This document shows, in pieces, positions 1 through 21,825 of a stretch of 64,000 nt of DNA. This stretch comes from an uncultured Chloroflexia bacterium (GTDB lineage: Bacteria; Chloroflexota; Limnocylindria; Limnocylindrales; CSP1-4). Each line of letters begins with the position of its first letter. The stretch's first letter is position 1. Location of the stretch: the NCBI GenBank assembly GCA_963813535.1, contig CAWEZH010000002.1, forward strand, positions 1,248,001-1,312,000. The letters run 5' to 3'. The notes below the pieces were generated by a model that was not told the DNA's origin, made no database searches, and was given only the letters and a program-made list of their open reading frames with translations. A program made the position numbers and the translations under genes.

Positions 1-250
1 CGGGCCAGAACAACTTCCACGAGCCGCACCATTCCTCGCCGATCTCGGGACGACGACCCCAGAAATCGGCCGCCGCCTCATTGAAGAATGTGATGCGGCC
101 GTCGGCGTCGGTCGTGTACACGGCAACCCCGAGTGCCTCCAGGAACTGGCGGTAGCTCGGGCTGTCGATCGACGGCGCGTCGAACATGGGACCGAGCCTG
201 GGATCGGCATCGGCCGGCCGGACGGCGGTCGTCGCCGGTTCGGGGGTCAC
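1..250 (-). CDS. PAS-domain sensor protein, probably a histidine kinase; only the N-terminus is in the window
   Basis: Hand translation (absent from the ORF track): MFDAPSIDSPSYRQFLEALGVAVYTTDADGRITFFNEAAADFWGRRPEIGEEWCGSWKLFWP, a typical PAS start. ATG at 187, in-frame GTG at 250. Confidence 0.8.
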   Translation of the reverse strand, partial: MTPEPATTAVRPADADPRLGPMFDAPSIDSPSYRQFLEALGVAVYTTDADGRITFFNEAAADFWGRRPEIGEEWCGSWKLFWP

Positions 251-300
251 CCGCGGTGCATACCACACGCCCCCCGGCTGCGATAGCCCTGGCGACGCGT

Positions 301-317
301 TGCGATGCGCCTGCAAC
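301..317 (+). promoter_or_regulatory. 11-bp direct-repeat box TGCGAT-gcgcc-TGCAAC
   Basis: Matches the motif shared by other intergenic regions; lies between divergent genes. Confidence 0.5.
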
Positions 318-547
318 GTTAGCCCCCGAGAACCCGGCGTGCGCGAGTACTCCCTAGCCACGCCGCTCGCTGCCGGTTCCGGGGCGGCGCATCGTGCGGC
401 TGTTGCCACGCGGTTCGACACGTTCTCGATCGCGCGCCATGTGCATGCACCTCATGGCGTCATCGTCAGCGAGAGGCGGCTACAGGCCGTCGCCACATCG
501 CAACCCCCCGCGGCTTGCAGGGGGCTGGCGGACGACCGTCACGTACG

Positions 548-946
548 ATGCGTCGCGTGCTTCGGATCCTCGTCGCATCCGTCATGGCGCTCGTTGTCGC
601 GGGATGCGGTCTCTCGTCGGTCGTCGTCGACGATGGCGGACCGCCGGTGCCGCCCGGCCCACTCGGCCCGGTCGTGCAACCCGATGGCGGCGGTCCGCCG
701 GTCGAATGCCGAGGTGTCCCGCTCGAGGAATGCAAGGGATTCGGCAACATGGATGGCGCGGGCGACGTCGTCCGCTACATCGTCACCTGCACGTCGGTCT
801 GCACACCCCAGAAGGGCGACGTCCGTATCGACGCATTGCGATCGAATGGGAGGACCGAGCAGCTCGGCCAGGGCACCTGGGAAGGGGCCGAAGCTGCGCC
901 GGAGGTCCCGCCGGCACCCGGATCCAGTCCGCCGGGTCCCAGCTAG
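548..946 (+). CDS. Hypothetical lipoprotein
   Basis: MRRVLRILVASVMALVVAGC is a signal peptide with lipobox; Pro-rich, four further Cys. Confidence 0.65.
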   Translation: MRRVLRILVASVMALVVAGCGLSSVVVDDGGPPVPPGPLGPVVQPDGGGPPVECRGVPLEECKGFGNMDGAGDVVRYIVTCTSVCTPQKGDVRIDALRSNGRTEQLGQGTWEGAEAAPEVPPAPGSSPPGPS

Positions 947-1779
947 GGTGAGTGTCGGCCCTGCAGCTCGATGGCCGCATCGGAGAACGCCGGCCAGCGT
1001 TCGAGTGCCCATGGTCCGAACTCGCGGTCCGTCAGGCAGACGAGTGCCACGTCGAGGACGGGGTCGACCCAGATGAATGTCCCCGCCCCGCCGAAATGAC
1101 CGAAGGTCGCCGCTGAGTTTCGGTCGCCTGTCCAGTGGGGAACCTTGCTGTCACGGATCTCGAACCCGAGCCCCCAATCGAGCGGGTCGAACGGGCCGAC
1201 GCCCGGCAGGACGCCCTTCAGGCCCGGGAATGCGACCGCCTTCGCAGCACTCGACGTGCCGCGACCCACGAGCGTCGGCCGGAGCAGCTCCAGAGCGAGG
1301 ACAGCAGCATCGCCGATCGGTCCCTGCAGGCCCTGGGACGGTCGCTCGACGAGCTCCGTGGCGGCCATACCCAGCGGAGCCAGCACGCGGTCCGCCAGGG
1401 CGACCGCGAATGGGCGGCGGTCGCGCTCCTCGAGGAGCGCCCCGAGCGCGTCGAACCCCGCGTTGGAATAGATCCGACGGGTCCCTGGCCGGGCGAGGAT
1501 CGTCGTGCCATCGAACGGGAGACCTGAGGCATGCGCGAGCAGGTGCCGTACGGTCGATCCCGGCGGTCCGGCGGGCTCGTCGAGATCGATGGTCCCGTCA
1601 TCGACGGCCGTCAGGAGCGCCAACGCCGTCGCGAGCTTCGTGACGGATGCCCAGCGAAAGCCTCGATCGGCGTCGCCGTGCTGGGCGAGCACACCGCTCG
1701 GGCCAACGAGAGCAGCGGCAGCATGCTCGGCGTCCCAATGGTCGATCGCGGCCAGGGCAGCATCGAGGTGGGTCGTCAC
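943..1779 (-). CDS. Serine hydrolase, beta-lactamase family
   Basis: SxxK (WASVTK), LLAHASG, YSN and GHFG motifs. Confidence 0.9.
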   Translation of the reverse strand: MTTHLDAALAAIDHWDAEHAAAALVGPSGVLAQHGDADRGFRWASVTKLATALALLTAVDDGTIDLDEPAGPPGSTVRHLLAHASGLPFDGTTILARPGTRRIYSNAGFDALGALLEERDRRPFAVALADRVLAPLGMAATELVERPSQGLQGPIGDAAVLALELLRPTLVGRGTSSAAKAVAFPGLKGVLPGVGPFDPLDWGLGFEIRDSKVPHWTGDRNSAATFGHFGGAGTFIWVDPVLDVALVCLTDREFGPWALERWPAFSDAAIELQGRHSP

Positions 1780-1839
1780 GGCCCCGGGATGCTAGCCCAC
1801 CGTCATGGGATCGACGCACGCCGGGAATAGACTTCGGGC

Positions 1840-2517
1840 ATGCAGTTCTTCGCTTCCAAGCCCAAGTCCATCCCATCCCCCGACAAGGCGCTGCCCGGCC
1901 GGCCCGATCCGATCATGGAGCCCGGGGTCCACACGATCCTCGGGACGCCCCTTGCCGGACCCTGGCCCGAGGGCACCAAGACCGCCATCTTCGGTCTCGG
2001 CTGCTTCTGGGGTGACGAGAAGGACTTCTGGCAGCTCCCCGGCGTGGTCACCACGGCGGTGGGCTATGCCGGCGGTTCGACGCCGAACCCGACCTACCAG
2101 GAGACATGCACCGGTCAGACCGGCCACGCCGAGGTCGTCCTGGTCGCGTACGACCCGCAGCGGATCTCCTACGAACAGCTTCTCAAGACGTTCTGGGAGC
2201 ATCACGACCCGACGCAGGGCATGCGCCAGGGGAACGATGTCGGCACCCAGTACCGATCGATCATCCTCGTCGCGGACGACGAGCAGCGGGCAGCCGCCGA
2301 GGCATCCAAGGCGATGTACCAGGAGCAGCTGTCGAAGGCGGGCTACGGGGAGATCAAGACCGAGATCGTCGACGCCGCGTCGAACCCGTTCTACTACGCC
2401 GAGGACTACCACCAGCAGTACCTCGACAAGAACCCTCGCGGCTATTGCCCCAACCACTCGACCGGCGTCAAGCTGCCGGCCGACTTCGTCGTCACCCCGC
2501 TGCAGTACGTGGACTGA
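1840..2517 (+). CDS. msrA: Peptide-methionine (S)-S-oxide reductase MsrA
   Basis: [30 protein letters not shown] and GYC motifs. Confidence 0.97.
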
Positions 2518-2660
2518 CTCGCTGCGGGTCGGCCGCGCATGGCTAGCCCACTGGGAGGCGTCCTCAGACGATGAACGCCCTGACCGCCGTTGGCCCTGCT
2601 CCAGTAGGTCCTTGGCGGTCTTGTCGCGTTGTGGGCGGAACTGAATCCCTATTGTGTGCG

Positions 2661-2699
2661 AAATCATATATTGACAAATCATATACCGCCTCCCATCGT
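2661..2699 (+). promoter_or_regulatory. Sigma70-type promoter with tandem operator
   Basis: TTGACA at 2671 flanked by two exact AAATCATATA copies (2661, 2676); CATCGT lies 17 bp after the -35. Confidence 0.6.
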
Positions 2700-2737
2700 G
2701 TCCTCGACAGGGGTCGCATCAGCACGGAGGCACGGAC

Positions 2738-3013
2738 ATGCAGGACATCCTCATCCGGATCGAGACCGACGACTTCGGGGCCTGGGCGGAGCAGCACTAC
2801 CTCCACGCCGTCAACCGAGCAACCTACGGAATCGAGGACGGACCGGCCTATCGGGACATGGACAATCCCAACGCGGCCATGTTCCACATCAGGACCGAGG
2901 ACGTCGATCGGGCGATGGGATGGTTCCAGTCCGATACCTTCAGGGCCGCGACCAAGCTGGCGAAGGTCACGGGCAGGTCCTTCTACGACGCCCAGCCTCG
3001 CAGCCGAACCTGA
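2738..3013 (+). CDS. Small hypothetical protein, possibly a dimeric alpha-beta barrel
   Basis: GGAGG RBS; 91 aa; F..W..R..G..YRD..NPN pattern. Confidence 0.75.
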   Translation: MQDILIRIETDDFGAWAEQHYLHAVNRATYGIEDGPAYRDMDNPNAAMFHIRTEDVDRAMGWFQSDTFRAATKLAKVTGRSFYDAQPRSRT

Positions 3014-3043
3014 CGCAACCCGATCGCGGAAAGGGAGCGACTC

Positions 3044-3523
3044 CTGGTTACACGCCGCGTCGGAGACGACGAACGCCTTTCGGCCTGGCGGGATCTGCAG
3101 TGGGCGACGAGTCTGATCATGAGCCGCTTCGCCCACGACCTCGCCGAAGAGGGCCTGACGCTCGAGGAGTTTGACGTCGTGGTCCACTTGGCGTGGGCTC
3201 GAGACGGCGTGCTGCCGTTGCGTGCACTGGTCGCCTCCATCGTCACGGGCTACCAGTTGAGTCGAAGTGGGCTCACCCGCCTGCTCGACCGGATGGAACG
3301 AGACGGCCTCGTCGAACGAAGCCTGAGTCGTGATGATCGGCGACAGTTCGACGTCGCGATCACCGGCCACGGCCGAGAGGTCTTCGACCGGGTTTGGCCC
3401 GGCCATCTGCAAGGGATCCAGAGCTCCTTCTCGGAGCCACTGACCGACCACGACGTGACCGTCTTGAAGCGGGTCCTTGCCAAGCTGATCCGCGCCAACG
3501 AGGGGCCGAACGGCCGGCGATAG
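3044..3523 (+). CDS. MarR family regulator, probable CTG start
   Basis: wHTH motif LSRSGLTRLLDRMERDGLVER..DDRR. The N-terminal helix ERLSAWRDL lies upstream of ATG 3119; AAGGGAG precedes CTG 3044. Confidence 0.85.
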   Translation: MVTRRVGDDERLSAWRDLQWATSLIMSRFAHDLAEEGLTLEEFDVVVHLAWARDGVLPLRALVASIVTGYQLSRSGLTRLLDRMERDGLVERSLSRDDRRQFDVAITGHGREVFDRVWPGHLQGIQSSFSEPLTDHDVTVLKRVLAKLIRANEGPNGRR

Positions 3524-3535
3524 GCTGACCTGTTT

Positions 3536-3624
3536 GAGAATCCGCGGGGCTATTGCCCGAACCACGCTACCGGCGTGCAGCTCCCGGATGCCTTCGTCGT
3601 CACGCCGCTTCAGTACTGGACTGA
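3536..3624 (+). repeat. Orphan diverged copy of the msrA 3' end (copy 2)
   Basis: Encodes [27 protein letters not shown], then a 1-bp deletion; compare msrA 2428-2517, [29 protein letters not shown]. Confidence 0.92.
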
Positions 3625-3650
3625 CAGTAGGCGCAACTATCCGGTGCTCG

Positions 3651-3680
3651 AACGGCTACTGCCCCGAACCGCGCAACCGG
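3651..3680 (+). repeat. Short degenerate msrA tail fragment (copy 3)
   Basis: aacggctactgccccgaaccgcgcaaccgg reads N-G-Y-C-(extra c)-P-N-R-A-T-G. Confidence 0.7.
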
Positions 3681-3860
3681 AATGATCCTTCCATCCAACT
3701 TCAAGGTCTCAGGGCTTCAATACCTGCAATGACCTTAGAGGAGTTCCTGGGAACCGGCGGCGGGGCTCGTCCATGGTCGAAGTCCAAGCCCGGGCGGACT
3801 CCAAGCTGCGCGTTAAACTCCTGCGAAACTCAAGTGTTCATCTAGAGGGAGCCCGCGGGC

Positions 3861-4697
3861 GTGGATGCGGATCGTCATGCCGAGGAGAGCGGTTCCGATC
3901 CCGACGCGAACCCGAACGAGGCCATGTGGCGGGCGATCCTCGACGGCACGGATCCCGTATATGCGCGAACTCGGGGCCGGCTGAAGCACCTCCCGGGAAC
4001 GCCGCGTTGCAAGATGTGTGCCGCGCCTTTCGGGGGCCCTGCCGGCATCCTGATGCGGTGGCGGGGTCGAGCGCCGTGGCCGAAGAACCCCGACTACTGC
4101 GGTGCCTGCTTCCAGCTGCTTGATCGATACCACGGCGGCGCGGAGATTGAATTGTCCTTCCTGTTCGCCGACATCCGCGGCTCGACGACCTTGGCGGAGG
4201 GGATCTCGCCGACGGCGTTTCGAACGCTTCTCGACCGCTTCTACGACGTCGCCGCGCGCGTCCTCGTCGCCCATGACGGCATCGTCGACAAGTTCGTCGG
4301 CGACGAGGTCGTTGGAATCTTCATTCCGGCGCTCGCCCACGGCGAGCATCCCGCGCAGGCAATCGCTGCTGGGCGGGCGCTGCTCGACGCGACGGGCCAC
4401 GGGGAACCCGATGGGCCGTGGCTGCCAGTTGGAGTCGGCGTGGCTACCGGAACCGCGTTCGTCGGGTCGGTCGGAGAGACGCACACGGCGGCGATGACGG
4501 CCCTCGGCGACATCGTGAACGTCACCGCGCGGCTTGCATCCGCCGCCGGGCCTGGCGAAATCCTCGTCAACGACAGGGCGGCAGAACGGGCCGGCCTTGA
4601 GACACGATCACTCGAGCTGCGCCGGCTCGGACTCAAGGGAAAGACGCAGCTGACTACCGTCTACGTCGTTCATGCCGGACGCGGATCAACCCCCTGA
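3861..4697 (+). CDS. Class III adenylate/guanylate cyclase with Cys-rich N-terminus
   Basis: FADIRGST, DKFVGDEV and TALGDIVNVTARL catalytic motifs; CKMC...CGAC upstream. Confidence 0.9.
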   Translation: MDADRHAEESGSDPDANPNEAMWRAILDGTDPVYARTRGRLKHLPGTPRCKMCAAPFGGPAGILMRWRGRAPWPKNPDYCGACFQLLDRYHGGAEIELSFLFADIRGSTTLAEGISPTAFRTLLDRFYDVAARVLVAHDGIVDKFVGDEVVGIFIPALAHGEHPAQAIAAGRALLDATGHGEPDGPWLPVGVGVATGTAFVGSVGETHTAAMTALGDIVNVTARLASAAGPGEILVNDRAAERAGLETRSLELRRLGLKGKTQLTTVYVVHAGRGSTP

Positions 4698-4722
4698 TGC
4701 CGACAGTAGCTTGAGCGGTTTC

Positions 4723-4810
4723 AGAACCCCGCGGCTATTGCCCCAACCACTCGACCGGCGTGAAGCTGCCGGATGACTTCAAGGCGACCCCGCTTCAATA
4801 CGTGGAATAG
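4723..4810 (+). repeat. Orphan diverged copy of the msrA 3' end (copy 4)
   Basis: NP(1-bp deletion)[26 protein letters not shown] followed by a stop. Confidence 0.92.
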
Positions 4811-4839
4811 GCCTCGTCACCCAGACGCTCCGACATGAA

Positions 4840-4866
4840 GAGACCCGCCCACGATGGGCGGGTCTC
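4840..4866. terminator. Hairpin between convergent genes
   Basis: GAGACCCGCCCA-cga-TGGGCGGGTCTC, perfect 12-bp stem. Confidence 0.75.
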
Positions 4867-4922
4867 GCCTTATCTTCGGGCTCGGTCAGGTCCCTTGAGA
4901 GTCGTTCGACTCGTCTGCGCGA

Positions 4923-5801
4923 TCACGCCATCGCGCCGTCGGCGACCTGGCGACCGATCGACGGCTCCGACCCATACCCCAGCCGGCCACGGGTGGCGAC
5001 GAGGACCGCCGCCGCGAGGACCGCGAAGCCCGCGTAGACGACCACCGGGTCGACCGACGGCGCGAGCACCGGGATGAATGCCGAGCCCGTGGCGACGCCA
5101 AGGCCCGCGTGGTACAGCCCGACGATCGGCACGCTACGACCCGAGCGGTTGTAGATCCAGGTCAGCACCAGCCGCACCGAGATCGGCAGGACGAACAGCG
5201 CGACGAGGTAGAACGGCACCTGCTCGGCGGTCACACGGCCATCGGTGACGCCGCCCGCGATGAACACCAGCGGGACGTGGATGAGGGCCTGCAGCCAGGT
5301 CGTCACGACGCTGGCGGCGATCGGGCCCAAACGCGGCTGGAGCCGCTCGAGCACGAACCCCGTCCACGCGGTCTCTTCCCACCAGTTGACGAGCGCGAAG
5401 GCGACGACAGCGCCGAGCACGATCGTCACGATGACGGCCGGGTTCGAGGCGAGGGCCGAGATCGGCGAGAGCCCTGCGACAGCGACCGCGGCCACCAGAC
5501 CGGCAGCCGGGAGGAGCAGGACGGCGACCGCATACCACGCCGGGTTGACTCGGAAATGGAAGACGCGGCGACGAAAGGCACGGACGCCTTCACGGCCTTC
5601 GGCGAGGGCGGTCGCGATGAACGCGGCGCCGGCGAGCGAGATGGCCGATAGGAGGATGAATGGCGCGATGCCCGGCAGCTCGAGATCGATGATCCCGATG
5701 CCGTTCGTCGATGCCAGTGGCACCGCGAAGATGGCCGCGCTCGCCGCGTAGGCGATGGTCAGGAAGACGGCGAGTGGATGCCGTCGTGCGATCGATCGCA
5801 T
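4923..5801 (-). CDS. CPBP (CAAX-like) intramembrane metalloprotease
   Basis: Multi-TM; EE(TAW)xG, HVP, YNRSGRS..H motifs; RBS before MRSIARRHPL. Confidence 0.85.
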   Translation of the reverse strand: MRSIARRHPLAVFLTIAYAASAAIFAVPLASTNGIGIIDLELPGIAPFILLSAISLAGAAFIATALAEGREGVRAFRRRVFHFRVNPAWYAVAVLLLPAAGLVAAVAVAGLSPISALASNPAVIVTIVLGAVVAFALVNWWEETAWTGFVLERLQPRLGPIAASVVTTWLQALIHVPLVFIAGGVTDGRVTAEQVPFYLVALFVLPISVRLVLTWIYNRSGRSVPIVGLYHAGLGVATGSAFIPVLAPSVDPVVVYAGFAVLAAAVLVATRGRLGYGSEPSIGRQVADGAMA

Positions 5802-5944
5802 CTGGTGTGTCCCCTTTCGTGGGCTTCTGTGGAGCTGCGGATCAAGCGATCCGTGTGCTTCCCAGACTCGCCTCGCGGGGACGCCACGTCGTCGGTCCAC
5901 GGGCCCGAACGGACACGCGACGTTCGGCGCGACGGGACCGTCCG

Positions 5945-5964
5945 AGCGATACCCGGGTATCGCT
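5945..5964. promoter_or_regulatory. Perfect 20-bp palindrome, candidate site for the NarL-family regulator
   Basis: AGCGATACCC|GGGTATCGCT between the divergent CPBP and kinase genes. Confidence 0.55.
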
Positions 5965-6046
5965 GCGATCTCATCCCACAGGCGGACGCCGAACTCCTGC
6001 CCGAGCGCTACCGTTCGGCACTGGAACCAGCCCTACCGAGGTGTCG

Positions 6047-7240
6047 ATGCTCGACCGACAACCGTCACCGATCGATCGGATACGCCGTGCGCACACCGAG
6101 TCGCCGCGACCCATCGATGTGGCGGTCGCACTCGGCCTCGCCGCGCTGTCCTTTGCCTCGTTCGTCGCTGGCGCGACGACGATCGGCCCTCGCGATGGCA
6201 TCACGGTCGTGCTGCTGCTCCTCGAGAGCCTTCCGCTCATGGTCCGTCGGCGCTATCCCCTCGAGGTGTTCCTGGTCGTGGTCGCCGCCAGCATCGCCCA
6301 CATCGCGATCCTGCCGTCGGATCAGGAACTGCAGTCCGGGCTGGGCATCCTCGTCGCGATGTACACGATCGGAGAGCGGCTCGACCGTCAGGTATCGATC
6401 CCGCTAGCCGTCCTGGCGGGGACGATGATCGCCGTGCTCCTGATCGGCCGCGCCGGTATCCCGGAGGGGCTCCAGAGCCTGATCCAGACCGAGCTCGTCC
6501 TCGGCGTCGCCTGGCTGGTCGGTGACACCTCGCGGATCCGCCACCTGTACACGAAGGCACTCGAGGAACGGGCTCGAATGCTCGATCGCGAACGCGAGGA
6601 GCGCACCAGACGCGCAGTCCTCGAGGAACGTGAGCGCATCGCGCGCGAGCTCCACGACGTCGTCGCCCACCACGTCAGCGTCATGGTCATCCAGGCCGGC
6701 GGCGCGTCGAGCGCCATCGACAAGCGACCCGACCAGGCACGGACCGCGTTGACCGCCATCGCAACGGCCGGGCGTCAGGCGCTGACCGACATGCGCCGGC
6801 TCGTCATGATGCCGGGGACAGGCGAGGCCGTCGAACCCATGCCGGGTCTGGGCCAGCTCGAAATCCTCGTCGACGAGGTCCGCTCGGCGGGGCTGCCGGT
6901 CGAAGTCACCATCCAGGGCGACCCGCGAGTGCTCGACCCCGGGCTCGACCTCTCTGCCTACCGGATCATCCAGGAGGGCCTGACGAACTCGCTCAAGCAC
7001 GCCGCGGGCGGCACGGCCAGGGCGACCGTCAACTACGCCACGGACGCCATCGAGATCACCGTCGAGGATGAGCGTGGCAGCGACAGCACGCCGCACCTGG
7101 AGCCCGACCATGAAGGCCGAGGGCTGCTCGGGATGCGCGAACGTGTCGCGATGTTCCGGGGCACCTTGGATGCCCGTCCGACCCCCACCGGCTATCGCAT
7201 CTTCGCGCGCCTCCCCGCCGCGGACGGAGGTACGCCGTGA
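6047..7240 (+). CDS. Membrane sensor histidine kinase (HisKA_3)
   Basis: EERERIARELHDVVAH, YRIIQEGLTNSLKHA, GRGLLGMRER; TM N-terminus. Confidence 0.95.
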   Translation: MLDRQPSPIDRIRRAHTESPRPIDVAVALGLAALSFASFVAGATTIGPRDGITVVLLLLESLPLMVRRRYPLEVFLVVVAASIAHIAILPSDQELQSGLGILVAMYTIGERLDRQVSIPLAVLAGTMIAVLLIGRAGIPEGLQSLIQTELVLGVAWLVGDTSRIRHLYTKALEERARMLDREREERTRRAVLEERERIARELHDVVAHHVSVMVIQAGGASSAIDKRPDQARTALTAIATAGRQALTDMRRLVMMPGTGEAVEPMPGLGQLEILVDEVRSAGLPVEVTIQGDPRVLDPGLDLSAYRIIQEGLTNSLKHAAGGTARATVNYATDAIEITVEDERGSDSTPHLEPDHEGRGLLGMRERVAMFRGTLDARPTPTGYRIFARLPAADGGTP

Positions 7241-7908
7241 CCATCCGCGTCCTCCTCGTCGACGATCAAGCACTCGTCAGGACGGGCTTCCGGATGATCC
7301 TCGAGGACGAAGCCGACATCGACGTGGTCGGCGAAGCCGCGAACGGGCGCGAGGCCGTCGAGGCGAGCGCGCGCCTTCGCCCGGACGTCATCGTCATGGA
7401 TATCCGCATGCCGGTCATGGATGGCGTCGAGGCCACCCGCAGCTTAGCCGGCGACGAAGCGACGTCCGGGGCCCGCGTCCTCATCCTGACGACGTTCGAC
7501 GCCGACGAGCTCGTCGTCGAGGCATTGCGGGCCGGCGCCAGCGGTTTCCTCCTGAAGGACGTGACACCGGAGGAATTCGTTCGCGCGATCCGCGTCGTCG
7601 CGACTGGCGAGGCGCTACTCGCCCCATCCGTGACGCGCCGCCTCATCGCCCGCTTCGCGCGCCTTCCGGTCCCTGCCGACGAGGTCCACGCGGACGCCTT
7701 GCGCGAGCTGACCGATCGCGAGAGGGAGGTGCTCAAGCTCGTGGCGCTCGGCCTCTCGAACCGGGAGATCGCCGGGCACCTCACGCTGGCCGAACCCACC
7801 GTGAAGACGCACGTCTCGCACCTTCTGCTCAAGCTCGACCTGCGAGATCGGGCGCAGCTGGTGGCATTGGCCTACGAGACCGGCGTCGTCCGTCCCGGCT
7901 CGGGCTAG
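7237..7908 (+). CDS. NarL/LuxR family response regulator
   Basis: REC domain (LVDD, MDIRMP, LLK) plus LTDREREVL..SNREIA HTH; GTGA overlap with the kinase. Confidence 0.95.
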   Translation: MTIRVLLVDDQALVRTGFRMILEDEADIDVVGEAANGREAVEASARLRPDVIVMDIRMPVMDGVEATRSLAGDEATSGARVLILTTFDADELVVEALRAGASGFLLKDVTPEEFVRAIRVVATGEALLAPSVTRRLIARFARLPVPADEVHADALRELTDREREVLKLVALGLSNREIAGHLTLAEPTVKTHVSHLLLKLDLRDRAQLVALAYETGVVRPGSG

Positions 7909-7958
7909 GGGCCCTCGCTCGGCCGGCCACTCGGCGCGCCGCCGGTTCGCATGCGACG

Positions 7959-8192
7959 ATGGCGTCCACCATGACCGGAAAGCATTCGCGCGAGCTGGGC
8001 CCGAAGATCGCCGCCGACTACCGGCTGCTCAACTACCTGCGGGGACGGTCGACGTCGTCGGTCGATGCGATCGAGCCCGGGAGCACTCGGATCGACGTCG
8101 AAGGTGGGGTCCTCGCGAGTCGCTGCGAGGAGGACCACGACGAGGTCCTCGAGTGCTGGTACTTCTACCGACGCTCGGGGAAGCCGAACTAG
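7959..8192 (+). CDS. Small hypothetical protein
   Basis: 77-aa ORF filling an otherwise empty gap; no recognisable motif. Confidence 0.35.
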   Translation: MASTMTGKHSRELGPKIAADYRLLNYLRGRSTSSVDAIEPGSTRIDVEGGVLASRCEEDHDEVLECWYFYRRSGKPN

Positions 8193-8249
8193 GTCCACCT
8201 TGGCTCGGCCGCGTGCGTCACGGGCGGGTCGGTCGGTCATGATGCATGT

Positions 8250-9233
8250 ATGGGCGACGGTGGGCCGGAGGTCATCACCCTTGGCGAGTGCCTTGCCTCG
8301 CTCCTGGCCTCCACGCCCGGATCGCTGGCCGAGGCGACCTCGTTCGAGCGCCATGTCGCCGGAGCCGAAGCGAACGTCGCGGTCGGGCTCGCGCGGCTCG
8401 GACATACGGTGGGGTTCATCGGCCGCGTGGGTGACGATGGCTTCGGGACGGCGATCGTACGCAAGCTCCGCGGCGAGGGCGTCGATGTGGCCCATCTGGT
8501 CGTCGACCCGGCTGCGACCGGCGTCATGTTCCGCGAGCGCCGGCTCCTCGGGACGAGCGCGGTCGTGTATCACCGCGCGGGTTCCGCCGGGTCTCGGCTG
8601 GCCGTCGATGACGTCGAACGAGCGGCGAATGACGGCGCGTTCGAGGCCGCCAGGTGGCTCCATCTCACGGGCATCACGCCAGCCCTGTCGGCCACGGCTC
8701 GAGCGGCAACGTTTCGGGCACGCGAGCTGGCGCGGGCAGCGGGCCTCACGATCAGCCTCGATATCAACCTGCGGCGCCGCCTCTGGTCGGACGAAGAGGC
8801 CGCGTCGGTCCTGCGCGAGCTGGCGGCAGGCGTGGACGTCGTCCTCGGCGGCGATGAGGAGCTCGCAGTCCTGACAGGCCTGGATCCCGCTGCGGCGGCT
8901 GAGGAGTCGGTCGCGGCGGTCACCCGACTCGGGCCGTCGATCGCCATCGCCAAGCTCGGAGCCGAAGGTGCCCTCGCGCTCGAGACCGGCGCGACGCCCA
9001 TCCTCGAACCGGCGATCATGGTCGGGACGGTGGTCGACCCTGTCGGGGCCGGCGATGCCTTCTGCGCCGGCTTCATCGCAGGCCGCCTCGATGGCACGGA
9101 CCTGCCCACGGCCGTCCGGATGGGCAACGCCTGCGGCGCACTCGCCGTCGCCGCCAGCGGCGATCAGGCGGGCTTGCCCGACCGAGCCGAGTTGGCGCGG
9201 CTCCTCGGCGGAGGACCGGACACGCTGCGCTGA
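8250..9233 (+). CDS. PfkB family sugar kinase (KDG-kinase-like)
   Basis: GAEANVAVGLARLG, DINLR, DPVGAGDAF. Confidence 0.92.
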   Translation: MGDGGPEVITLGECLASLLASTPGSLAEATSFERHVAGAEANVAVGLARLGHTVGFIGRVGDDGFGTAIVRKLRGEGVDVAHLVVDPAATGVMFRERRLLGTSAVVYHRAGSAGSRLAVDDVERAANDGAFEAARWLHLTGITPALSATARAATFRARELARAAGLTISLDINLRRRLWSDEEAASVLRELAAGVDVVLGGDEELAVLTGLDPAAAAEESVAAVTRLGPSIAIAKLGAEGALALETGATPILEPAIMVGTVVDPVGAGDAFCAGFIAGRLDGTDLPTAVRMGNACGALAVAASGDQAGLPDRAELARLLGGGPDTLR

Positions 9234-10219
9234 ACATCGGCGTCCCAGGCGCCGATCGCATCACGGACAGCCGCGGAGATGGATCCCGACGCCGTCGCAC
9301 CCGTCAGTCGATCGAGCCCGAGCAAGGCCGACCCCGCGACGGGCGGCGCCATCAGCCCCGTCACATCGGCAGCCGGCGCGATCGCCGCGATCCCGGCCGC
9401 GATGCGTTCCCGAAAGGCGGCGTCGCGCGTCCGGAACACGCCTCCTGCCAACACGACGTCGGGGTCGCGGCGCGTCAGATGCAGTCGCCGGATCATCGCT
9501 CCGGCCATCACGACGATCTCGTCGGCGAGGCGGTCGACGATGCGGCGGGCGGCCGCATCTCCGGCTCCCGCCGCCGCGAACACGACGGGTGACAGCTCTC
9601 CGATACGTGCCTCGGCGATGCGGCCCGTGTACATCGCCGATGTCACCGCGGCCGGCGACGACAGACCGAAATGGGCCGGGACGTCCTGCTCCAGGCGAGT
9701 GCGCGGTCCCCGGCCGTCACGTGCCCGGACGGCCGCCGCCAGACCCTCCCAGCCCACGTCCGTCCCGCCGCCCCAGTCACCCGAGATATCGCCAAGCGCG
9801 TCGAGGCGGACACTCCGGCCGTCCGGCGCGACCCCGGCGGCGTTGACGCCCTGGCCGCAGATGACCACGACGCCCCACGAGCGATCCGTTCCGGCACGTA
9901 GCGCTCCGAACGCATCGTTGAGCACCACGAGCTGCTCGGCGAAACCGCGCTCGTCGAGGGCGGCCGTCAGGGTGTTGACATCGTCACGGGTGTCCGCGCC
10001 CGCGAGCGTGTACACCGCGATGTCGGGGCGCGCGTCCAGCCGGGCCCCAGCGGACGCCTCCGCCACGAGCCCCGCCATCCGCTCCATGCCCGCGCCCAGG
10101 CCGACCGCCTGGTGCGAGCTCGTCGACCCGCGTGCCGCCGCCAGCAGGCGCCCGTCCTCGTCGACGATCGCCACATCCGTCTTCGAGTTCCCGCCGTCGA
10201 CGGCGAGGACCGTCCTCAC
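9164..10219 (-). CDS. BadF/BadG/BcrA/BcrD (GlcNAc-kinase-like) sugar kinase
   Basis: VLAVDGGNSKT, VLND, GDWGGG, VLAGGV; GTG start overlaps the deacetylase stop. Confidence 0.9.
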   Translation of the reverse strand: MRTVLAVDGGNSKTDVAIVDEDGRLLAAARGSTSSHQAVGLGAGMERMAGLVAEASAGARLDARPDIAVYTLAGADTRDDVNTLTAALDERGFAEQLVVLNDAFGALRAGTDRSWGVVVICGQGVNAAGVAPDGRSVRLDALGDISGDWGGGTDVGWEGLAAAVRARDGRGPRTRLEQDVPAHFGLSSPAAVTSAMYTGRIAEARIGELSPVVFAAAGAGDAAARRIVDRLADEIVVMAGAMIRRLHLTRRDPDVVLAGGVFRTRDAAFRERIAAGIAAIAPAADVTGLMAPPVAGSALLGLDRLTGATASGSISAAVRDAIGAWDADVQRSVSGPPPRSRANSARSGKPA

Positions 10220-10818
10220 CCCAGCGCGTCCAGCCGTACGAAGCTGGCACCGGCATCTCGCAGACCGCTGATGAGCGGCGCGAGGCCGAGGCCCGTGGCC
10301 ATCGTCCAGGGGTGGAGCAGAAGGATCGCACCGTCGCCACGCGCGACCGCATCTCGCGTCATCTGGCGGGCCATCCCCCGCCCGCGCATGCTCGGGCGCC
10401 AGTCGGCGCCGTCCACGTCCCAATGGACCTCGCGGTAGCCCAGCCGCTCGATACCGGCCCGTACCCTCGCATCGTCGGTCCCGGCGCCGAACGGGCAGCG
10501 GAACCAGGGTTTGGGGTCGACCCCCGTGGCCGCGACGATCGCCCGTTCCGCGGCGCGGATATCGGTGGCCAGACCGGACGGTGACAGGAGCGGCATCCGC
10601 GCATGGTAGAAGGAGTGGTTGCCGATGAGGTGGCCTCGCTCCGCGACCGAGCGCGCCAGGTCCGGGTAGGCCTCCGCCCAGCGACCCTGGATGAAGAACG
10701 TGGCCTTGACGCGCTCTTTGTCGAGCAGGTCCAGGACGCCCTCGGTCCCGCCGGAGTTGTGCGGGCGGTCGGGATGCTCGGCGTCGAAGGTCAGCGCGAC
10801 GCGGAACGTCATCGCCAC
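10216..10818 (-). CDS. Polysaccharide deacetylase (NodB/CE4)
   Basis: VALTFD, ATFF, GNHSFYH, FRCPFG, ILLLH. Confidence 0.92.
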   Translation of the reverse strand: MAMTFRVALTFDAEHPDRPHNSGGTEGVLDLLDKERVKATFFIQGRWAEAYPDLARSVAERGHLIGNHSFYHARMPLLSPSGLATDIRAAERAIVAATGVDPKPWFRCPFGAGTDDARVRAGIERLGYREVHWDVDGADWRPSMRGRGMARQMTRDAVARGDGAILLLHPWTMATGLGLAPLISGLRDAGASFVRLDALG

Positions 10819-10842
10819 ATCGCTCGAGAGGTCACCCCGGCG

Positions 10843-11946
10843 TCACTTCTCGACGCCGGTGATGACGATGCCGCGGGTGAAGAACCGCTGGGTCAGCAGG
10901 AAGGCGACGACCGGGATGATGAGCGTCATCAGGGTGCCAGCCTGGATCAGCCCGGGCTCGCGATAGTAGATCCCGTTGAACCGCTGCAGGCCCAGAGCGA
11001 CGGTCTGCAGATCGACCCGCCCGGCCGTGTACAGCAGCGGCCCGAAGAAATCGTTCCACGAGTAGACGAGGTGGAAGACCGCGACGGCCACCACGACCGG
11101 CCATGCCTGCGGCAGGACGACCGAGATCAGGGTCCGGAACGGACCGGCACCGTCGATGGCTGCCGCCTCGTCCATGTCGGTCGGGATCGTCATGAAGTAC
11201 TGGCGCATCAGGAACACGTCGTAGGCGTTCGCGAAGAAGGCCGGTACGAGCAATGGCAGCCAGGTCCCGACCCAGCCGATCTTCTGGAACACGGTGTAGG
11301 TCGGGATGATCGTCACAGCCGCCGGCAGGAAGATCGTCGCGATCAGGAGTGTGAAGAGAAAGCCCCTGCCCGGGAACCGGAACCGGGCGAATCCGTACGC
11401 CACGAGGATGCACGAGATGAGCGTGCCGATGGTCGACACGACCGCGATGAAGATCGTGTTGAACAGCAGCCGCGGGTAGTCGATCAGGTCCCAGACCTCG
11501 GCGAAGTTCTCCCAATGCGGCGCGAACTGCCAGGCGGGCTCCAGCGTCCGCCACGATCCCACCCATTCGATGGGCGGGGCTGTCGGAGCCACCGGGTCGA
11601 TGAACGTGCTGCGCCGGCGCGCCGGCTCGAACAACGCGAGCTGGCGCGTCGTGCCGTCCGGCAGCGGGACGTTGAGGATGGGCAGTTGCTCGCCCTGGTA
11701 CTCGAACGTCACCGGGTCGGCCGGGTAGAGCGGCGAATGTGCTTGCGTGATCTGGTCGAGGCTCTTGAGCGAGTACGAGATCGAGCGGAGCATCGGCGAG
11801 AGGAATGCGGCCACCGTGAGGACCGCGATCAGCGTCAGCAGGAAGGACTTCGTGTTGTCGCCCTTCTCGCGCGGGGGCCGGCTACCGGCGGCTCTCCTGC
11901 CCCGCCGTCCCACGAGGCCACGACCGGCCACCGAGAAGGCGGTCAT
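10843..11946 (-). CDS. Carbohydrate ABC transporter permease
   Basis: EAAAIDGA loop, AYGFARFRFPG, WNDFFGPLLY. Confidence 0.95.
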   Translation of the reverse strand: MTAFSVAGRGLVGRRGRRAAGSRPPREKGDNTKSFLLTLIAVLTVAAFLSPMLRSISYSLKSLDQITQAHSPLYPADPVTFEYQGEQLPILNVPLPDGTTRQLALFEPARRRSTFIDPVAPTAPPIEWVGSWRTLEPAWQFAPHWENFAEVWDLIDYPRLLFNTIFIAVVSTIGTLISCILVAYGFARFRFPGRGFLFTLLIATIFLPAAVTIIPTYTVFQKIGWVGTWLPLLVPAFFANAYDVFLMRQYFMTIPTDMDEAAAIDGAGPFRTLISVVLPQAWPVVVAVAVFHLVYSWNDFFGPLLYTAGRVDLQTVALGLQRFNGIYYREPGLIQAGTLMTLIIPVVAFLLTQRFFTRGIVITGVEK

Positions 11947-12890
11947 CGTGCGTCACCCGCGTAGTAGACCCATCGCCGGGCGGTCCCGAACAGCAGCAAG
12001 GTGATCGCCAGGGTGATCACGAACAGGAGCCACGCCAGCGTCGCGCCGTACGACATGTTCTGGAACGTGAAGAAGTTCTTGTAGAGATAGAGGTTGTAGA
12101 ACATCGTCGAGCCGCCCGGTTCGCCGGTGCCCTCCTGCAGGACGAGCGGCACGAGGAAGTATTGGAGCACCTCCACGACCGACAGCACGATCGTGTAGAA
12201 GATGACCGGGGTGAGCATCGGCACCGTGATATGGCGCAGCGACTGCCAGGCGCCGGCCCCGTCGATCTTGGCCGCCTCGTACAGGTCCGTCGGGATCCCC
12301 TTGAGCGCGGCCAGGTAGACGATCATCCCGGCGCCGATCCCCCACACGCCGATGAGCGCCAATCCCGGGTAGACCCACGACGGGTCCTCGAGCCAGCCGG
12401 GCGGGTCCTGCACGCCGATGGCCTCGAGCGCAGCGTTGATCCAACCGGTCTCCGGGTTGAGCATCCCGCCCCAGATGAACACGGTCGCCACGAATGGCAC
12501 CACGAAGGGCAGGAAGAACAGGATCCGGAAGGCGCCGGATCCGCGGAGATGCCGCGAATGCAGCATCAGCGCGACCAGCAGGGGCAGGATCACGGCGAGT
12601 GGCAGGGCCAGCGCCGCGAACTTGAACGTGATCCCCAGGGAGGTCCACGTCTGCTGGTCGCGCAGCAGCGTCTCGTAGTTCTTGAGCCCCACGAACTGGA
12701 GCGGCTGGGACTGGGTGAGATTGATATTGGTGAACGAGAAGACGAGCGTCGCGACCATCGGGAAGGCCGTGAACAGCACGAACCCGATGAGCCAGGGCGC
12801 GATGAAGACGTACCCCCAGCGCGCGCGCCGCCAGCCGAGACCGGAGAAGCGGGGCAGGCTGCGCGGGCGCGCGACGCTGGGGGCGACCAT
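11943..12890 (-). CDS. Sugar ABC transporter permease
   Basis: FVGLKNY, LYEAAKIDGA, GYGATLAW-like segment. Confidence 0.95.
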   Translation of the reverse strand: MVAPSVARPRSLPRFSGLGWRRARWGYVFIAPWLIGFVLFTAFPMVATLVFSFTNINLTQSQPLQFVGLKNYETLLRDQQTWTSLGITFKFAALALPLAVILPLLVALMLHSRHLRGSGAFRILFFLPFVVPFVATVFIWGGMLNPETGWINAALEAIGVQDPPGWLEDPSWVYPGLALIGVWGIGAGMIVYLAALKGIPTDLYEAAKIDGAGAWQSLRHITVPMLTPVIFYTIVLSVVEVLQYFLVPLVLQEGTGEPGGSTMFYNLYLYKNFFTFQNMSYGATLAWLLFVITLAITLLLFGTARRWVYYAGDAR

Positions 12891-16592: not shown

Positions 16593-16720
16593 CGGGACGT
16601 CGGGACGCAGGCTGCCGATAGACATCCGTCACGAAGCGGGGGCCCGGCTCGTCCACCTCTTCGCGTGTCTTGCGCCATCCTATGCGCCGACATCGCCCCT
16701 TCCGCCGCCCGGAGATCCTC

Positions 16721-19523
16721 TTGTCATCCAGCTCTCGTTCGCACGCCTACCCGCGCCGCCCGGACCGTCCCTACGCCCCCCGCCGGTCGACCACCGGCTG
16801 GCTGGCGGTCATCGTCTTCGTCTTCCTCGCCGGCATCGGCATCATCGGCGCACTCTCGGCAGTCAGCGTCTATGCGGCCCTGGCGAACGGCCTCCCGCCC
16901 GTCTCCCGCCTCGAGGAGCTGCGCCTGCCCCAGGAGATCGTCGTTCTCGACCGGACCGGCACGACCGAGCTCGCACGGTTCGGTGAGTTCAAGCGCGAGG
17001 TCGTCCCGTTCGAGGAGATCCCGCCGGTGCTGCTCGACGCGACCACGGCAGTGGAGGACAAGACGTTCTGGGAGAACGCGGGCTTCGACCCGGCGGCCAT
17101 CGTGGCGGCCGGCCTGGATTCGATCCGAGGCGACAGCCGTGGTGCCTCCACCATCACGCAGCAGCTCGTCCGCGCCCGCCTGCTCGAGGACGATCTCGTC
17201 CAGGATCCCACGCGGACGGTCGAGCGGAAGCTCAAGGAGATCATCCAGTCGATCCGCCTGACCCGGGCGTATCCGGACGATGCGGGCAAGCGCCGGATCA
17301 TCGCGGCCTACCTGAACAACAACTACTACGGCAACCAGAGCTATGGCGTGAAGGCCGCCGCTCAGTCGTACTTCGGCAAGTCGCTCGACGAGCTGACGCC
17401 GGGCGAGGCGGCGACCCTCGCGGCCCTGCCGCAGTCCCCGTCGAACTACGACCTGGTGCGGAATGCGGTGTCGACCTGCGACGTCGAGCTGAACGACGAA
17501 GGTGTGTGCCCGCCTGCCGAAGAGCACCTGACCCTCGAACCGGACACCAAGATCGCCCAGCGGCGGGACGCCGTGCTCGAGCTGATGGCGGGCGGCCGCA
17601 TGCCGATGTCGGACGGGCAGTTCACCCCGGAGCAGCTCGAGGCCGAGAAGGGCAAGCCGATGGAGCTGGCGCGCCAGACGACACCGCCCTGGAAGGCGCC
17701 CCATTTCGTGTGGGCCGTCCAGGCGGAGCTCGCGAGGAAGGTCTGCGGCCCCGACACGCCGACCTGCACGCCGCTCGAGGAAGGCGGGCTCCGCGTCACG
17801 ACCACCCTCGATTGGGGACTGCAGCAGATCGCCGAGAAGTGGGTCAAGGCGTCGACCATCGCCCCGCACAACCGCAACCCGGAGCGGTTCGCGACGCGCG
17901 GCCTAGGATTTCGACGAGTATCCCGCCTGGATACGCAATCTCGAGAACAAGGACGTCCGCAACGGGGCGCTCGTCGCGATGGACTACCAGAGCGGCGAGA
18001 TCGTGGCCCACGTCGGTTCGGCGAACTACTACGCGTCGTCGAACAACCCGAAGTTCCAGCCGCAGTACGACGTCGTGACCCAGGGCTTCCGACAGCCGGG
18101 ATCCGCGTTCAAGCCGTTCAACTATGCCGTCGGCATCGACGAAGGCGCATTCACTGCCGGCGACATGCTGATGGACGTCGCGACCGACTTCGGTGGTGGC
18201 TACTCACCGACCGATGCCGACAACCTCGAGCGAGGCCCGGTCAGGGTCCGCGACGCGCTGCAGTTCTCGCTCAACATCCCCGCCGTCAAGGCCATGGCGC
18301 TCAATAGTCCCGAGCACATGTTCGCGCGGGCCAAGGACTTCGGGATGACCTTCCAGAGCGAGACCACCGATGCCGGCCTCGCGCTCGCGCTCGGCGTGGC
18401 GGAGACCCGCCCGATCGACCTCGTCGGTGCGTACGGCACGCTGGCCAATGGCGGCGTCCGCGTGGAGCAGACCTCGATCCTTCGCATCCAGGACGCCTCG
18501 GGCGAGGACATCGAGCTTCCCGCGCAACGTGAGCCGGTCCAGGTCATCAAGCCGCAATCGGCCTTCATCCTCACGGACATCCTCAGTGGCAACACCAACC
18601 AGCGCATCAACCCGTTCTGGGGCAAGTTCCGGGTCGTGGGCCCGGAGGGAGCGCGCCGGCCGGCCACTCTCAAGACCGGCACCAACAACGACGCCAAGGA
18701 CCTCAACGCCTACGGCTACATCGCGCCACCGACCGAGCAGGGCCGGCAGGACGGGGCGTACGCGCTGGCGGTCGGTGTGTGGAACGGCAACAGCGACAAC
18801 ACGCCGGTGTCGACCCCGGCTCGACCCGTGTTCTCGATCGACGTCTCCACGTTCGTCTGGCAGGGCTTCCTCCAGGAGGCGACCGAGAAGTGGGAGATCA
18901 CCCGCTTCTCCCGACCGGACAACGGGCTGACCCAGGTCGCTGTCGACCCGCTCACCGGGATGCTCCCCTCCGGGCAGACCGAGGGCGTCGACGAGTGGTT
19001 CCTGGCCGGCTCCGAGCCGACCACCAGGCTGCCGGCGGCTCGGTGCGGGATCCAGGCGCTGGAGGCCACCCGGCACGAGCCCAAGTTCCCGAACTGGATG
19101 GATGCGGACCGCGACTGGTTGCGACGCGCCCAGCGTGGTGTGGGGGTCGCCGGTGGCCCGGATCGGACCAGGACGGCGTACTTCTACAACGGCCAGTTCA
19201 GCCCCTACGGGCGGACGTGGCGCCCGTTCGTGACCCGCAACAACTGCGGCGCGTCTCCCAGCCCGACGCCGAGCTGCATCCCGTTGCCCACCCCGGACGA
19301 GAATGGCGTGATCCCATCGATCGCGATCCCGTCGCCATCCGGTTCCGAGGTCGCGGCGATCCCGTGCCCACCGGCATCGGGGGAGCCCAGCCCGAGCGAG
19401 GAGGTGCCTCCGACCCCGGAGCCCACCTCGGAGCCGACGCCCGAACCGACTCCGGAACCGACGGCCGAGCCGACCCCGGAGCCCACACCCGAGCCGACCG
19501 AGCCACCGGCCGAACCCTCCTGA
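16721..19523 (+). CDS. Class A penicillin-binding protein (transglycosylase plus transpeptidase), frameshift near 17910
   Basis: EDKTF, GASTITQQL and RKLKE in frame 1; GSAFKP, SLN and KTGT in frame 2; removing one T in ggatttcgac joins them (GLGFDEYPAWIRN). Confidence 0.9.
19405..19505 (+). repeat. PTPE tandem repeat in the PBP C-terminus
   Basis: About 8 degenerate 12-bp units. Confidence 0.75.
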
Positions 19524-21124: not shown

Positions 21125-21706
21125 ATGCCGCGACGGCGCTACATCTTCGACCCGCCCGACCGATTCGTGGCCGGAACCGTCGGCCAACCGGGCGATCGGA
21201 CCTTCTTCCTCCAGGCCCGTGAGGGCGGTCGGGTCGTCTCGGTGGCACTCGAGAAGGTGCAGGTCGCGGTGCTTGCCGAGCGGCTTGGTGCCCTCCTCGA
21301 CGAGCTCGACCTGCGGGGCATCGCCGACCCCACCGACGACGAGCCGGTCGCCACATCGCCGGCCGAGGCCACCCTCGAAAGTGAGACGCTCGACGAGCCA
21401 CTGAACGAAGCGTTCCGGGCCGGGTCATTGACCCTCGGCTGGGACGGCGGGGCGGAGCGCGTCCTGGTCGAGGCACGCGCACAGGACGACGACGGCGAAG
21501 CCATCGATCCCGACGATGATGACGACGAGGACGACGATGGCCCGGACCTGCTGCGTGTCCGCATGACCGCCGCGGCGGCGCGCACGTTCGTCGCTCGCGC
21601 GACGCAGGTCGTGGCGTCGGGCCGTCCACCGTGCCCGCTGTGCGGCGCGCCGCTCGATCCGCGAGGGCACATCTGCCCGCGGCGCAACGGCCACTACGTG
21701 AACTAG
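21125..21706 (+). CDS. DUF3090 family protein
   Basis: FVAGTVGQPGDRTFFLQA, LEKVQV, GRPPCPLCGAPLDPRGHICPRRNGH. Confidence 0.9.
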   Translation: MPRRRYIFDPPDRFVAGTVGQPGDRTFFLQAREGGRVVSVALEKVQVAVLAERLGALLDELDLRGIADPTDDEPVATSPAEATLESETLDEPLNEAFRAGSLTLGWDGGAERVLVEARAQDDDGEAIDPDDDDDEDDDGPDLLRVRMTAAAARTFVARATQVVASGRPPCPLCGAPLDPRGHICPRRNGHYVN

Positions 21707-21825
21707 CTTCTTGTCGCGACGGATGTCGCGAATGTCGAACAGAGCCTCAGGAGGCGGCTGCGATCGTCGGCCGGCCGCTCATTCGAGTCGGGGTCCCGGC
21801 GTCGAGACGATCCCCGCAGCGCCGC

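Follow-up and report, generated by a model that had tools for sequence, protein, structure and literature searches.

How does a gene come to be followed by several copies of its own 3′ end, with unrelated genes lying between them? The question is raised by msrA of an uncultured Chloroflexia bacterium, in a 64,000-nt stretch of DNA (contig CAWEZH010000002.1 of assembly GCA_963813535.1, forward-strand positions 1,248,001-1,312,000), which is referred to here as the window and in which positions are counted from its first letter. The gene is intact (1840-2517, + strand, 225 aa; Pfam PMSR E 1.2e-62, NCBIfam TIGR00401 E 2.9e-64), and behind it further copies of its tail alternate with small genes. 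A first-pass annotation, made from the letters of this DNA, had explained the arrangement by serial gene capture with displacement of the older tails. The reading favored here, with a probability of roughly 0.6, is that small cassettes mobilized in trans have been inserted one after another at a specific site in the 3′ end of msrA, each of them restoring the gene.

Four msrA 3′ ends are present in the window, all in the same orientation. T1, which now completes msrA, lies at 2428-2517. Of the displaced tails, T2 (3536-3624) lacks 1 nt near its end, and T4 (4722-4810), the last in the row, lacks 1 nt at its junction. All three were placed by tail alignments and a direct-repeat search, and T2 and T4 also by nhmmer. 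The direct-repeat search united them in one family (2434-2513, 3542-3621 at 79%, and 4727-4806 at 86%), and self-BLAST of the whole window aligned T1 with T4 (87% over 85 nt, E 2e-21), T1 with T2 (83% over 90 nt, E 1e-18), and T2 with T4 (77% over 109 nt). These are 3 of the 18 non-self pairs in the 64 kb; since the other 15 are intragenic tandem repeats or one pair of kinase paralogues, the msrA tail is the only dispersed gene-end repeat of the window. Between T2 and T4 lies T3 (3654-3732), an old, decayed tail of full length and about 62% identity. It extends from GGCTACTGCCCC at 3654 as far as the TGA at 3730-3732, has one base inserted, and is recovered by nhmmer (3653-3731, E 1e-4) and by tblastn (match PNRATGMILPSNFKVSGLQYL). 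The recurrence and the shared orientation of the tails had already been recorded in the first-pass annotation and are confirmed; what was taken there for a fragment at 3651-3680 is this fourth copy.

On the + strand, the array reads msrA with T1, a 91-aa gene and a MarR gene, T2, an empty space, T3, a class III cyclase gene, T4, and a terminator-like hairpin. The space between T2 and T3 (3625-3653; 27-29 nt, CAGTAGGCGCAACTATCCGGTGCTCGAAC) holds junction-like sequence only, with no gene, and is regarded as an empty cassette. The hairpin behind T4 (4840-4866) has a 12-pair stem with 9 G-C pairs in the hairpin scan, in agreement with the terminator proposed earlier. Alignments and self-BLAST likewise bear out the earlier claim on the limits of the two long copies. 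Indeed, T2 and T4 begin at AGAAYCC (2429 is aligned with 3537 and 4723), and the likeness ends at the stop codon. In the comparisons within the window, nothing of the first 590 nt of msrA was found beside any displaced tail. The tRNA scan detected no tRNA in the window, and positions 1-9000 gave no Rfam match at E up to 1; an RNA element in this region was rejected.

The same architecture, with other cargo, occurs in related genomes. A scan of species-representative genomes for MsrA yielded 80 loci, which together with the window make 81 sources. The closest of them are L001 (92%), L002 (90%), L003 (82%), and L004-L008 with L011 (67-73%), all from metagenome-assembled genomes labelled Chloroflexia, Chloroflexota, Limnocylindria, or CSP1-4. 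Extra tails were sought in three ways, by tblastn with the window tail, by an nhmmer tail profile, and with the MsrA C-terminus of each locus itself. Convincing extra tails were found in 5 of the 81 sources: three in the window, one each in L001, L007, and L034, and one plus a 24-nt remnant in L011. The remaining matches to the loci's own C-termini were of low complexity or due to chance, with E values of 1e-4 or weaker, and lay outside the msrA context. Arrays are thereby present in four of the ten closely related Chloroflexota sources (the window, L001, L007, and L011), and the six without them (L002-L006 and L008) have a single tail each; L005 and L006 are short contigs, and L008 contains a doubtful remnant only. 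This last candidate (L008 11215-11290, after a GYD gene directly behind msrA) consists of ACAGGCTGAC and then AACCCGCGCGGC, possibly a decayed junction and tail, and is too weak to be counted. A candidate in L003 (14976-15024, nhmmer E 0.11) was rejected, as it lies inside a GHMP-kinase gene. In L002, no tail remnant was seen upstream of YecM in the alignment.

Both the cargo and the number of tails vary among these relatives, as the first-pass annotation had expected. L001 has two tails, and its cargo is a zinc-type alcohol dehydrogenase gene on the opposite strand, which starts about 50 nt from the junction motif described below and has its stop 3 nt from that of msrA. L007 also has two tails, with a gene for a 162-aa membrane protein. 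In L011, the first unit carries a dienelactone hydrolase, a frameshifted small gene, and a 131-aa protein, and the second a GYD-domain protein. Cargo of L001 and L011 is on the minus strand, so that orientations are mixed. The tail-to-tail spaces, which comprise cargo and junction motif, measure 27, 666, about 800, 990, 1009, 1018, and 2579 bp. None of the window cargo was found in the 80 MsrA loci at E 1e-8.

Two observations can be added on these loci. Decay within a cassette is visible in L011, where positions 10780-10970 hold a C-terminal piece of a cytosine DNA methyltransferase (…RECARLMGYPDDF…) and 12005-12480 the frameshifted small gene. The stretch from msrA to a pfkB kinase gene differs among the three closest genomes: it holds a CAAX protease and a two-component pair in the window (4811-8250), YecM and a 224-aa open reading frame (ORF) in L001 (11776-13048), and a 1136-aa cyclase-ATPase and YecM in L002 (10679-14911). 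It is a variable island whose older parts carry no recognizable tails.

The two loci L007 and L011 can be compared as a state after and a state before insertion. Their upstream regions plus msrA match at 89% over 1748 nt, and identity in the hydrolase gene downstream reaches 97% over 655 nt. The body of msrA is identical at 528 of 579 positions with no gaps. From AAGAA on, the current tail of L007 agrees with that of L011 at only 61 of 81 positions, with 16 gap columns (Fisher p 1.4e-4 versus the body), and contains two extra codons (NDGRPMYC versus NPDGYC). A second L007 tail, located behind the inserted 162-aa gene, is identical to the L011 tail at 65 of 81 positions. L007 corresponds to L011 plus one cassette, and the pattern is what one would expect if the incoming unit had brought its divergent tail and displaced the resident one.

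A further piece of evidence is a motif of 26 nt directly upstream of the displaced tails. In the window, it precedes T2 at 3510-3535 (the “P-arm,” ...GGCGATAGGCTGACCTGTTTG) and T4 at 4698-4721 (GCCGACAGTAGCTTGAGCGGTTTC), both on the + strand. The BLAST alignment of T2 with T4 (3513-3620 with 4699-4806) begins 23 nt upstream of the tails; the alignments to T1 begin at the tail. Against a null of 20000 random pairs, the motif of T2 in the window agrees with that of L001 T2 at 19 of 26 positions and the latter with L011 T2 at 18, scores which no random pair reaches. The window T2 motif shares 17 positions with L011 T2 (22 random pairs reach this) and 16 with T4 (46 random pairs). The T4 motif is more weakly related to those of L001 T2 and L011 T2, with 14 and 12 identical positions (477 and 3695 random pairs, respectively). 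Compared with the sequence upstream of the msrA tail itself, the junction motifs score only 8-10 of 26. The core ATA[GC]GCTGA[CT] occurs eight times on both strands of 1.4 Mb of sequence, and three of these occurrences are the junctions. A conserved motif foreign to msrA, placed beside a fixed boundary, looks like the element-side half of an attachment site, as far as sequence can tell, and its occurrence in three genomes with three different cargoes fits a site-specific mechanism. A second junction type, CGGTGCTC, shared by the window T3 and L011 T3, is not significant alone, since its 8-mer pattern is found about 40 times in the 1.4 Mb. A blastn search with the motif-plus-tail site (window 3498-3735) gave no match in PLSDB and INPHARED, collections which are assumed to hold few Chloroflexota records.

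The divergence of the tails indicates what they were before displacement. The differences between T1 and T2 are distributed over codon positions 1/2/3 as 3/2/10 and those between T2 and T4 as 4/4/11, an excess at the third position in both cases (one-sided binomial p 0.0085 and 0.024). The earlier statement that T2 diverged as coding sequence is borne out by the first of these values. All eight synonymous differences listed for it are present, and five non-synonymous codons exist besides, which that list lacked. T1 and T3 differ by 13/7/14, with no bias by codon position, and no p value was computed for this pair. The states HATG and LPDDF, which distinguish T2 and T4 from T1, are the usual ones among functional MsrA proteins from the same 90% cluster, of which 15 sequences were read. 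Each of the displaced tails has suffered at least a one-base indel, which lies near the end in T2, behind TGCCCC in T3, and at the junction in T4; L001 T2, L011 T2, and the truncated L011 T3 are likewise affected. The displaced tails were once working gene ends and have decayed after displacement.

The cargo of the window belongs to two cassettes. The first encodes a 91-aa protein (2738-3013, + strand), for which the family scans gave no Pfam or NCBIfam family and whose nearest ESM Atlas clusters carry the automatic name “cyclase family protein,” and a MarR-family regulator (3119-3523, + strand, frame open from 3047; Pfam MarR_2 E 3.5e-7). The second encodes a 278-aa protein with a class III adenylate/guanylate cyclase domain (3861-4697, + strand; Pfam Guanylate_cyc E 2.1e-11). 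The genes abut the junctions closely: the MarR stop codon falls within the T2 motif, and the cyclase stop is 1-2 nt ahead of the T4 motif. A promoter had been placed before the first cassette; the promoter scan returned 0 sites, and what exists is an AT-rich stretch (2640-2700, + strand) with TTGACA at 2672-2677 and two AATCATATA repeats, which may serve as promoter or operator. At 90% identity, the clusters of the three cargo proteins have 133 (91-aa protein), 70 (MarR), and 40 (cyclase) members. The comparison covers ten other window proteins, two further ones having no match under the chosen start codon; their clusters have 2, 4, 1, 1, 10, 8, 6, 5, and 8 members, and that of a highly conserved response regulator, the one outlier, has 1137. 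The large cargo clusters fit with a spread beyond the host species. A second MarR-family gene is located at 37680-38081 of the window and is 34% identical to that of the cassette.

On this basis, the following scheme can be proposed. The 3′ end of msrA, around the codons for K-N-P-R-G-Y-C, would be the attachment site for small integrative cassettes. Each cassette would combine a replacement msrA tail ending exactly at the stop codon with 0-3 accessory genes, closely packed and equipped with expression signals of their own, and would carry at its far end a conserved motif of about 26 nt. A recombinase encoded elsewhere, acting in trans, would join the motif-plus-tail site of the cassette to msrA at AGAAYCC (2429-2435). 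The incoming tail would complete msrA, so that the gene stays functional, and the previous tail would be pushed downstream behind the junction motif of the cassette. Repeated events would give the order T1-[91 aa, MarR]-T2-[empty]-T3-[cyclase]-T4-terminator, and the displaced tails would later decay through frameshifts and substitutions. The serial capture put forward in the first-pass annotation gains support from the variable cargo and tails, the L007/L011 pair, the third-position bias, and the junction motif; its mobile side, that is, circles and a recombinase, we infer, as we do the crossover point, the circular intermediate, the action in trans, and the order of events.

A recombinase at an msrA 3′ end was found only in another phylum. 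In Herbidospora cretacea (L034, NZ_BBXG01000007.1), msrA (1441-2094) is followed by an element of 8.8 kb (2095-10880) and by a displaced msrA tail (10881-10988). The element encodes a pSAM2-type RepSA (E 9e-161) together with a large serine recombinase of 507 aa, with Resolvase and Recombinase domains, whose gene ends 24 nt from the displaced tail. No protein with these two domains lies beside the attachment site in the window, L001, L007, or L011. In L034, the duplication starts at YHQQYL and thereby precedes the Chloroflexota boundary by about 25 nt; it therefore belongs to a different system that uses the same conserved stretch of msrA. The msrA 3′ end is thus the target of a bona fide integrative element elsewhere, which is an independent precedent. 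The same element also encodes an Imm21 immunity-type protein and a DUF4365 protein. In the window, an inverted repeat with arms of 6 bp, GCAGTA (2415-2420) and TATTGC (2443-2448; TACTGC in L002 and L003), is centered at 2431|2432 beside the homology boundary; it is only a lead. Combined with the precedents for serine recombinases in L034 and Dehalococcoides, it makes a large serine recombinase the leading candidate, an argument that draws on sequence and on general background knowledge.

Several results weigh against serial insertion of trans-mobilized cassettes. The first concerns the enzyme. Among 67 ORF translations of the window (seven around the array, a set of at least 80 aa with high GC3, and a set of at least 180 aa from the unfiltered ORFs), Pfam detected no integrase, resolvase, or transposase, so that the earlier claim of a window free of integrases holds. 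No recombinase was found within 10 kb of msrA in L001-L008 and L011 (76 + 16 ORFs), which leaves the enzyme hypothetical, and neither the 64-kb window nor these nine related loci, scanned within 10 kb, showed an autonomous element with an integrase that uses the same attachment site. The second concerns the tails. The third-position excess between T1 and T4 (2/4/8, p 0.058) is marginal. Compared with the unoccupied tail of L002, T1 is identical at 80 of 90 positions, T2 at 73 of 89, and T4 at 74 of 89, and the gene body at 524 of 584. Since T1 is as close to the L002 tail as the gene body is, nothing shows that T1 was imported, and T4, expected to be the original tail, is less similar to that of L002 than T1 is. 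Sequence comparison over 90 nt is too short to tell which tail of the window is native. Moreover, the window and L001-L003 share no homology 3′ of the last tail, and the ancestral end of the array cannot be fixed for this reason. The large clusters of the cargo proteins could also reflect strong conservation and not transfer. Finally, the first unit of L011 (2.6 kb), with its methyltransferase fragment and its frameshifted gene, implies that some units are decayed larger pieces.

This last point leads to the alternative that survives best, although it appears unlikely: that the units are eroded remains of larger integrase-bearing elements, such as actinomycete integrative and conjugative elements (AICEs), integrative and mobilizable elements (IMEs), or prophage-like elements, which were serially integrated at msrA and whose small size is secondary, the units being no longer mobile. 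The msrA 3′ end of L034 does harbor a complete element of 8.8 kb, equipped with RepSA and a large serine recombinase, the first unit of L011 retains the methyltransferase C-terminal fragment and the frameshifted gene, and the unit between T2 and T3 is empty. In Dehalococcoides, 15 of 31 ssrA islands are described as having no integration module (PMC3146451). However, five of the seven units measure 0.67-1.02 kb and have their genes within a few nt of tail and motif; such tight packing leaves no room for remnants of a recombinase and points to intrinsically small units. Indeed, an integrase fragment was seen in none of these five, and the four array-bearing genomes have no integrase within 10 kb. 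As to the precedent, the boundary of L034 at YHQQYL lies about 25 nt upstream of that of the Chloroflexota arrays and marks another system.

It is improbable that the arrays arose by RecA-dependent single crossover within the 90-nt homology, by means of circles or fragments with an msrA tail, with tail-to-tail recombination reshuffling the island. That no recombinase came out of the scans would agree with such a process, the tails form direct repeats of a length that allows some homologous exchange, and they match the type of their host lineage (PNH..LQYVD in the window, L001, L002, and L003; PDHGTGV.CP in L007 and L011). Yet, being only 75-87% identical, the tails are poor substrates for RecA. 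Moreover, the left boundary falls at the same nucleotides in independent genomes and adjoins a conserved non-msrA motif, which homologous exchange neither needs nor maintains, and the first attachment of a tail to unrelated cargo is left unexplained.

Very little probability is assigned to an integron-like array that has lost its integrase, that is, a cluster of attC sites lacking integron-integrases (CALIN), with the repeat units acting as attC. The resemblance lies in cassettes of about 1 kb with mostly a single gene, in repeat units of about 115 nt, and in the lack of an adjacent integrase. Against this, the repeat consists of coding sequence, the 3′ end of a conserved gene, and is present in relatives without arrays, cargo lies on the opposite strand in L001 and L011, and no IntI-type protein was found in the window scans. 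The attC model was also rejected by folding: eight single-strand folds (121-122-nt units, both strands) gave z values of -1.80 to +0.20 versus shuffles, with no hairpin of attC type. Just as improbable is an assembly artefact or a decay of tandem whole-gene msrA duplications, since the copies, although they come from a metagenome-type assembly and repeats can mislead assemblers, differ by 13-38% and cannot be collapsed or chimeric repeats, the same architecture with different cargo recurs in four independent assemblies, and the displaced tails have one fixed start of similarity and are accompanied by none of the first 590 nt of msrA.

Serial site-specific insertion at msrA can be extended, tentatively and with less confidence than the reading for the window itself, to a whole lineage. 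Limnocylindria-like Chloroflexota may possess an undescribed cassette system parallel to integrons, in which single-gene cassettes of about 1 kb, with expression signals of their own, are moved in trans by an unlinked recombinase both into msrA and out of it, the msrA 3′ end is a lineage-wide hotspot of capture, and the target is never inactivated. The families carried by the units (MarR, cyclase, alcohol dehydrogenase, dienelactone hydrolase, and GYD) include no integration or transfer genes. If the cassettes move, they would represent a compact mechanism of gene capture in an abundant and poorly studied phylum of soil and freshwater, and they would offer a ready-made pair of attachment sites for finding the recombinase. 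Orphan 3′ ends of protein genes can serve to trace gene flow in metagenome-assembled genomes, as partial tRNAs do now.

Other features of the window are recorded here for completeness. A class A penicillin-binding protein is split at 16670-19523 into a transglycosylase ORF (16670-18307) and an overlapping transpeptidase ORF (17979-19523) in different frames; the cause is a frameshift or else an indel in the assembly. Tandem repeats inside genes, of about 100 nt and with 74-86% identity, are located at 22011-22380 in an ORF with a helix-turn-helix domain (21631-23163) and at 34981-35729 in an 840-aa PKD-domain protein (33821-36343). A 1197-aa protein at 26515-30108 combines RNase_H_2 and superfamily-1 helicase domains (AAA_11/AAA_12). 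On the minus strand, 47662-48879 encodes a bacterial type IB topoisomerase (Topoisom_I E 4.6e-33; 90% cluster of 6 members), for which there is no evidence of a link with the array. The fold of type IB topoisomerases is related to that of tyrosine recombinases.

Several known systems can be compared with the msrA array. Integrons capture cassettes of about 1 kb, often with one gene, serially at one site, and arrays without an adjacent integrase occur. Except in a CALIN, the IntI tyrosine recombinase and attI lie beside the array; the attC sites, imperfect inverted repeats, form hairpins when single-stranded, and most integron cassettes share one orientation and have no promoter. The msrA array differs from them in that no attC hairpin, intI, or attI was found, the orientation of the cargo is mixed, and the repeat is a functional gene end; furthermore, unlike integron cassettes, its cargo appears to have its own expression signals, as suggested by the AT-rich region upstream of the first cassette. 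The Herbidospora element uses the same conserved stretch of msrA, replaces the 3′ end of the gene, and leaves a displaced tail, but it is single, 8.8 kb long, and autonomous-looking, with a boundary about 25 nt further upstream.

Accretion at a protein gene's 3′ end is exemplified by the ICEs (integrative and conjugative elements) and the cis-mobilizable elements (CIMEs) at fda of Streptococcus. CIMEs are integrase-less units between repeats of attL/attR type, which build up in tandem and are presumably moved by the recombinase of a related element (a concept cited in PMC3146451). Like CIMEs and accretion arrays, the msrA units of the window, L001, L007, and L011 are flanked by direct repeats of the 3′ end of the target gene and, like CIMEs, contain no integration or transfer genes. 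Unlike them, they are of single-gene size and without a known parent, whereas known CIMEs derive from and co-reside with identifiable ICEs or IMEs. In staphylococci, staphylococcal cassette chromosome (SCC) elements at rlmH (orfX) occupy the 3′ end of a housekeeping gene and form composite arrays, some units of which lack a recombinase. They have short direct repeats and measure tens of kb. The msrA array resembles SCC, by this general background, in the integration into the 3′ end of a conserved gene and in the formation of arrays, and differs in target and host. The serine recombinase of SCC elements, CcrAB, is mentioned in PMC3146451.

In Prochlorococcus tycheposons, as described in a preprint (bioRxiv 10.1101/2020.12.28.424599), later insertions push older ones inward, and partial copies of the target gene lie between cargo. 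Unlike these elements, which have tRNA targets and tyrosine recombinases according to the same text, the msrA array has a protein-gene target and neither a tRNA nor a recombinase in the window.

The nearest described case is that of the Dehalococcoides ssrA islands. According to McMurdie et al. 2011 (PMC3146451), they are tandem, lie 3′ of the single-copy tmRNA gene, and are bounded by a 20-bp direct repeat of the gene end; 16 of 31 islands contain a DsiB/DsiA serine recombinase module, and the 15 of 31 without it are proposed to be cis-mobilizable and to spread by accretion. The islands are reported to overlap SCC elements and phage genomes in size, and their number varies per strain (PMC3146451). 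The msrA arrays share with them, as far as that account goes, the phylum and the tandem units behind a single-copy gene, bounded by repeats of its 3′ end. They differ from what is described there in the target, msrA, in the 90-nt tail that restores the frame, in units of 0-2.6 kb, and in that 0 of 7 units have a recombinase. Literature searches, judged on titles and abstract openings, gave no description of msrA as an attachment site. Integrated elements are already known to accumulate in tandem at a housekeeping gene's end; what is new here is the msrA 3′ end as target, a frame-preserving 90-nt tail, single-gene-sized units without a recombinase, and a junction motif common to several genomes.

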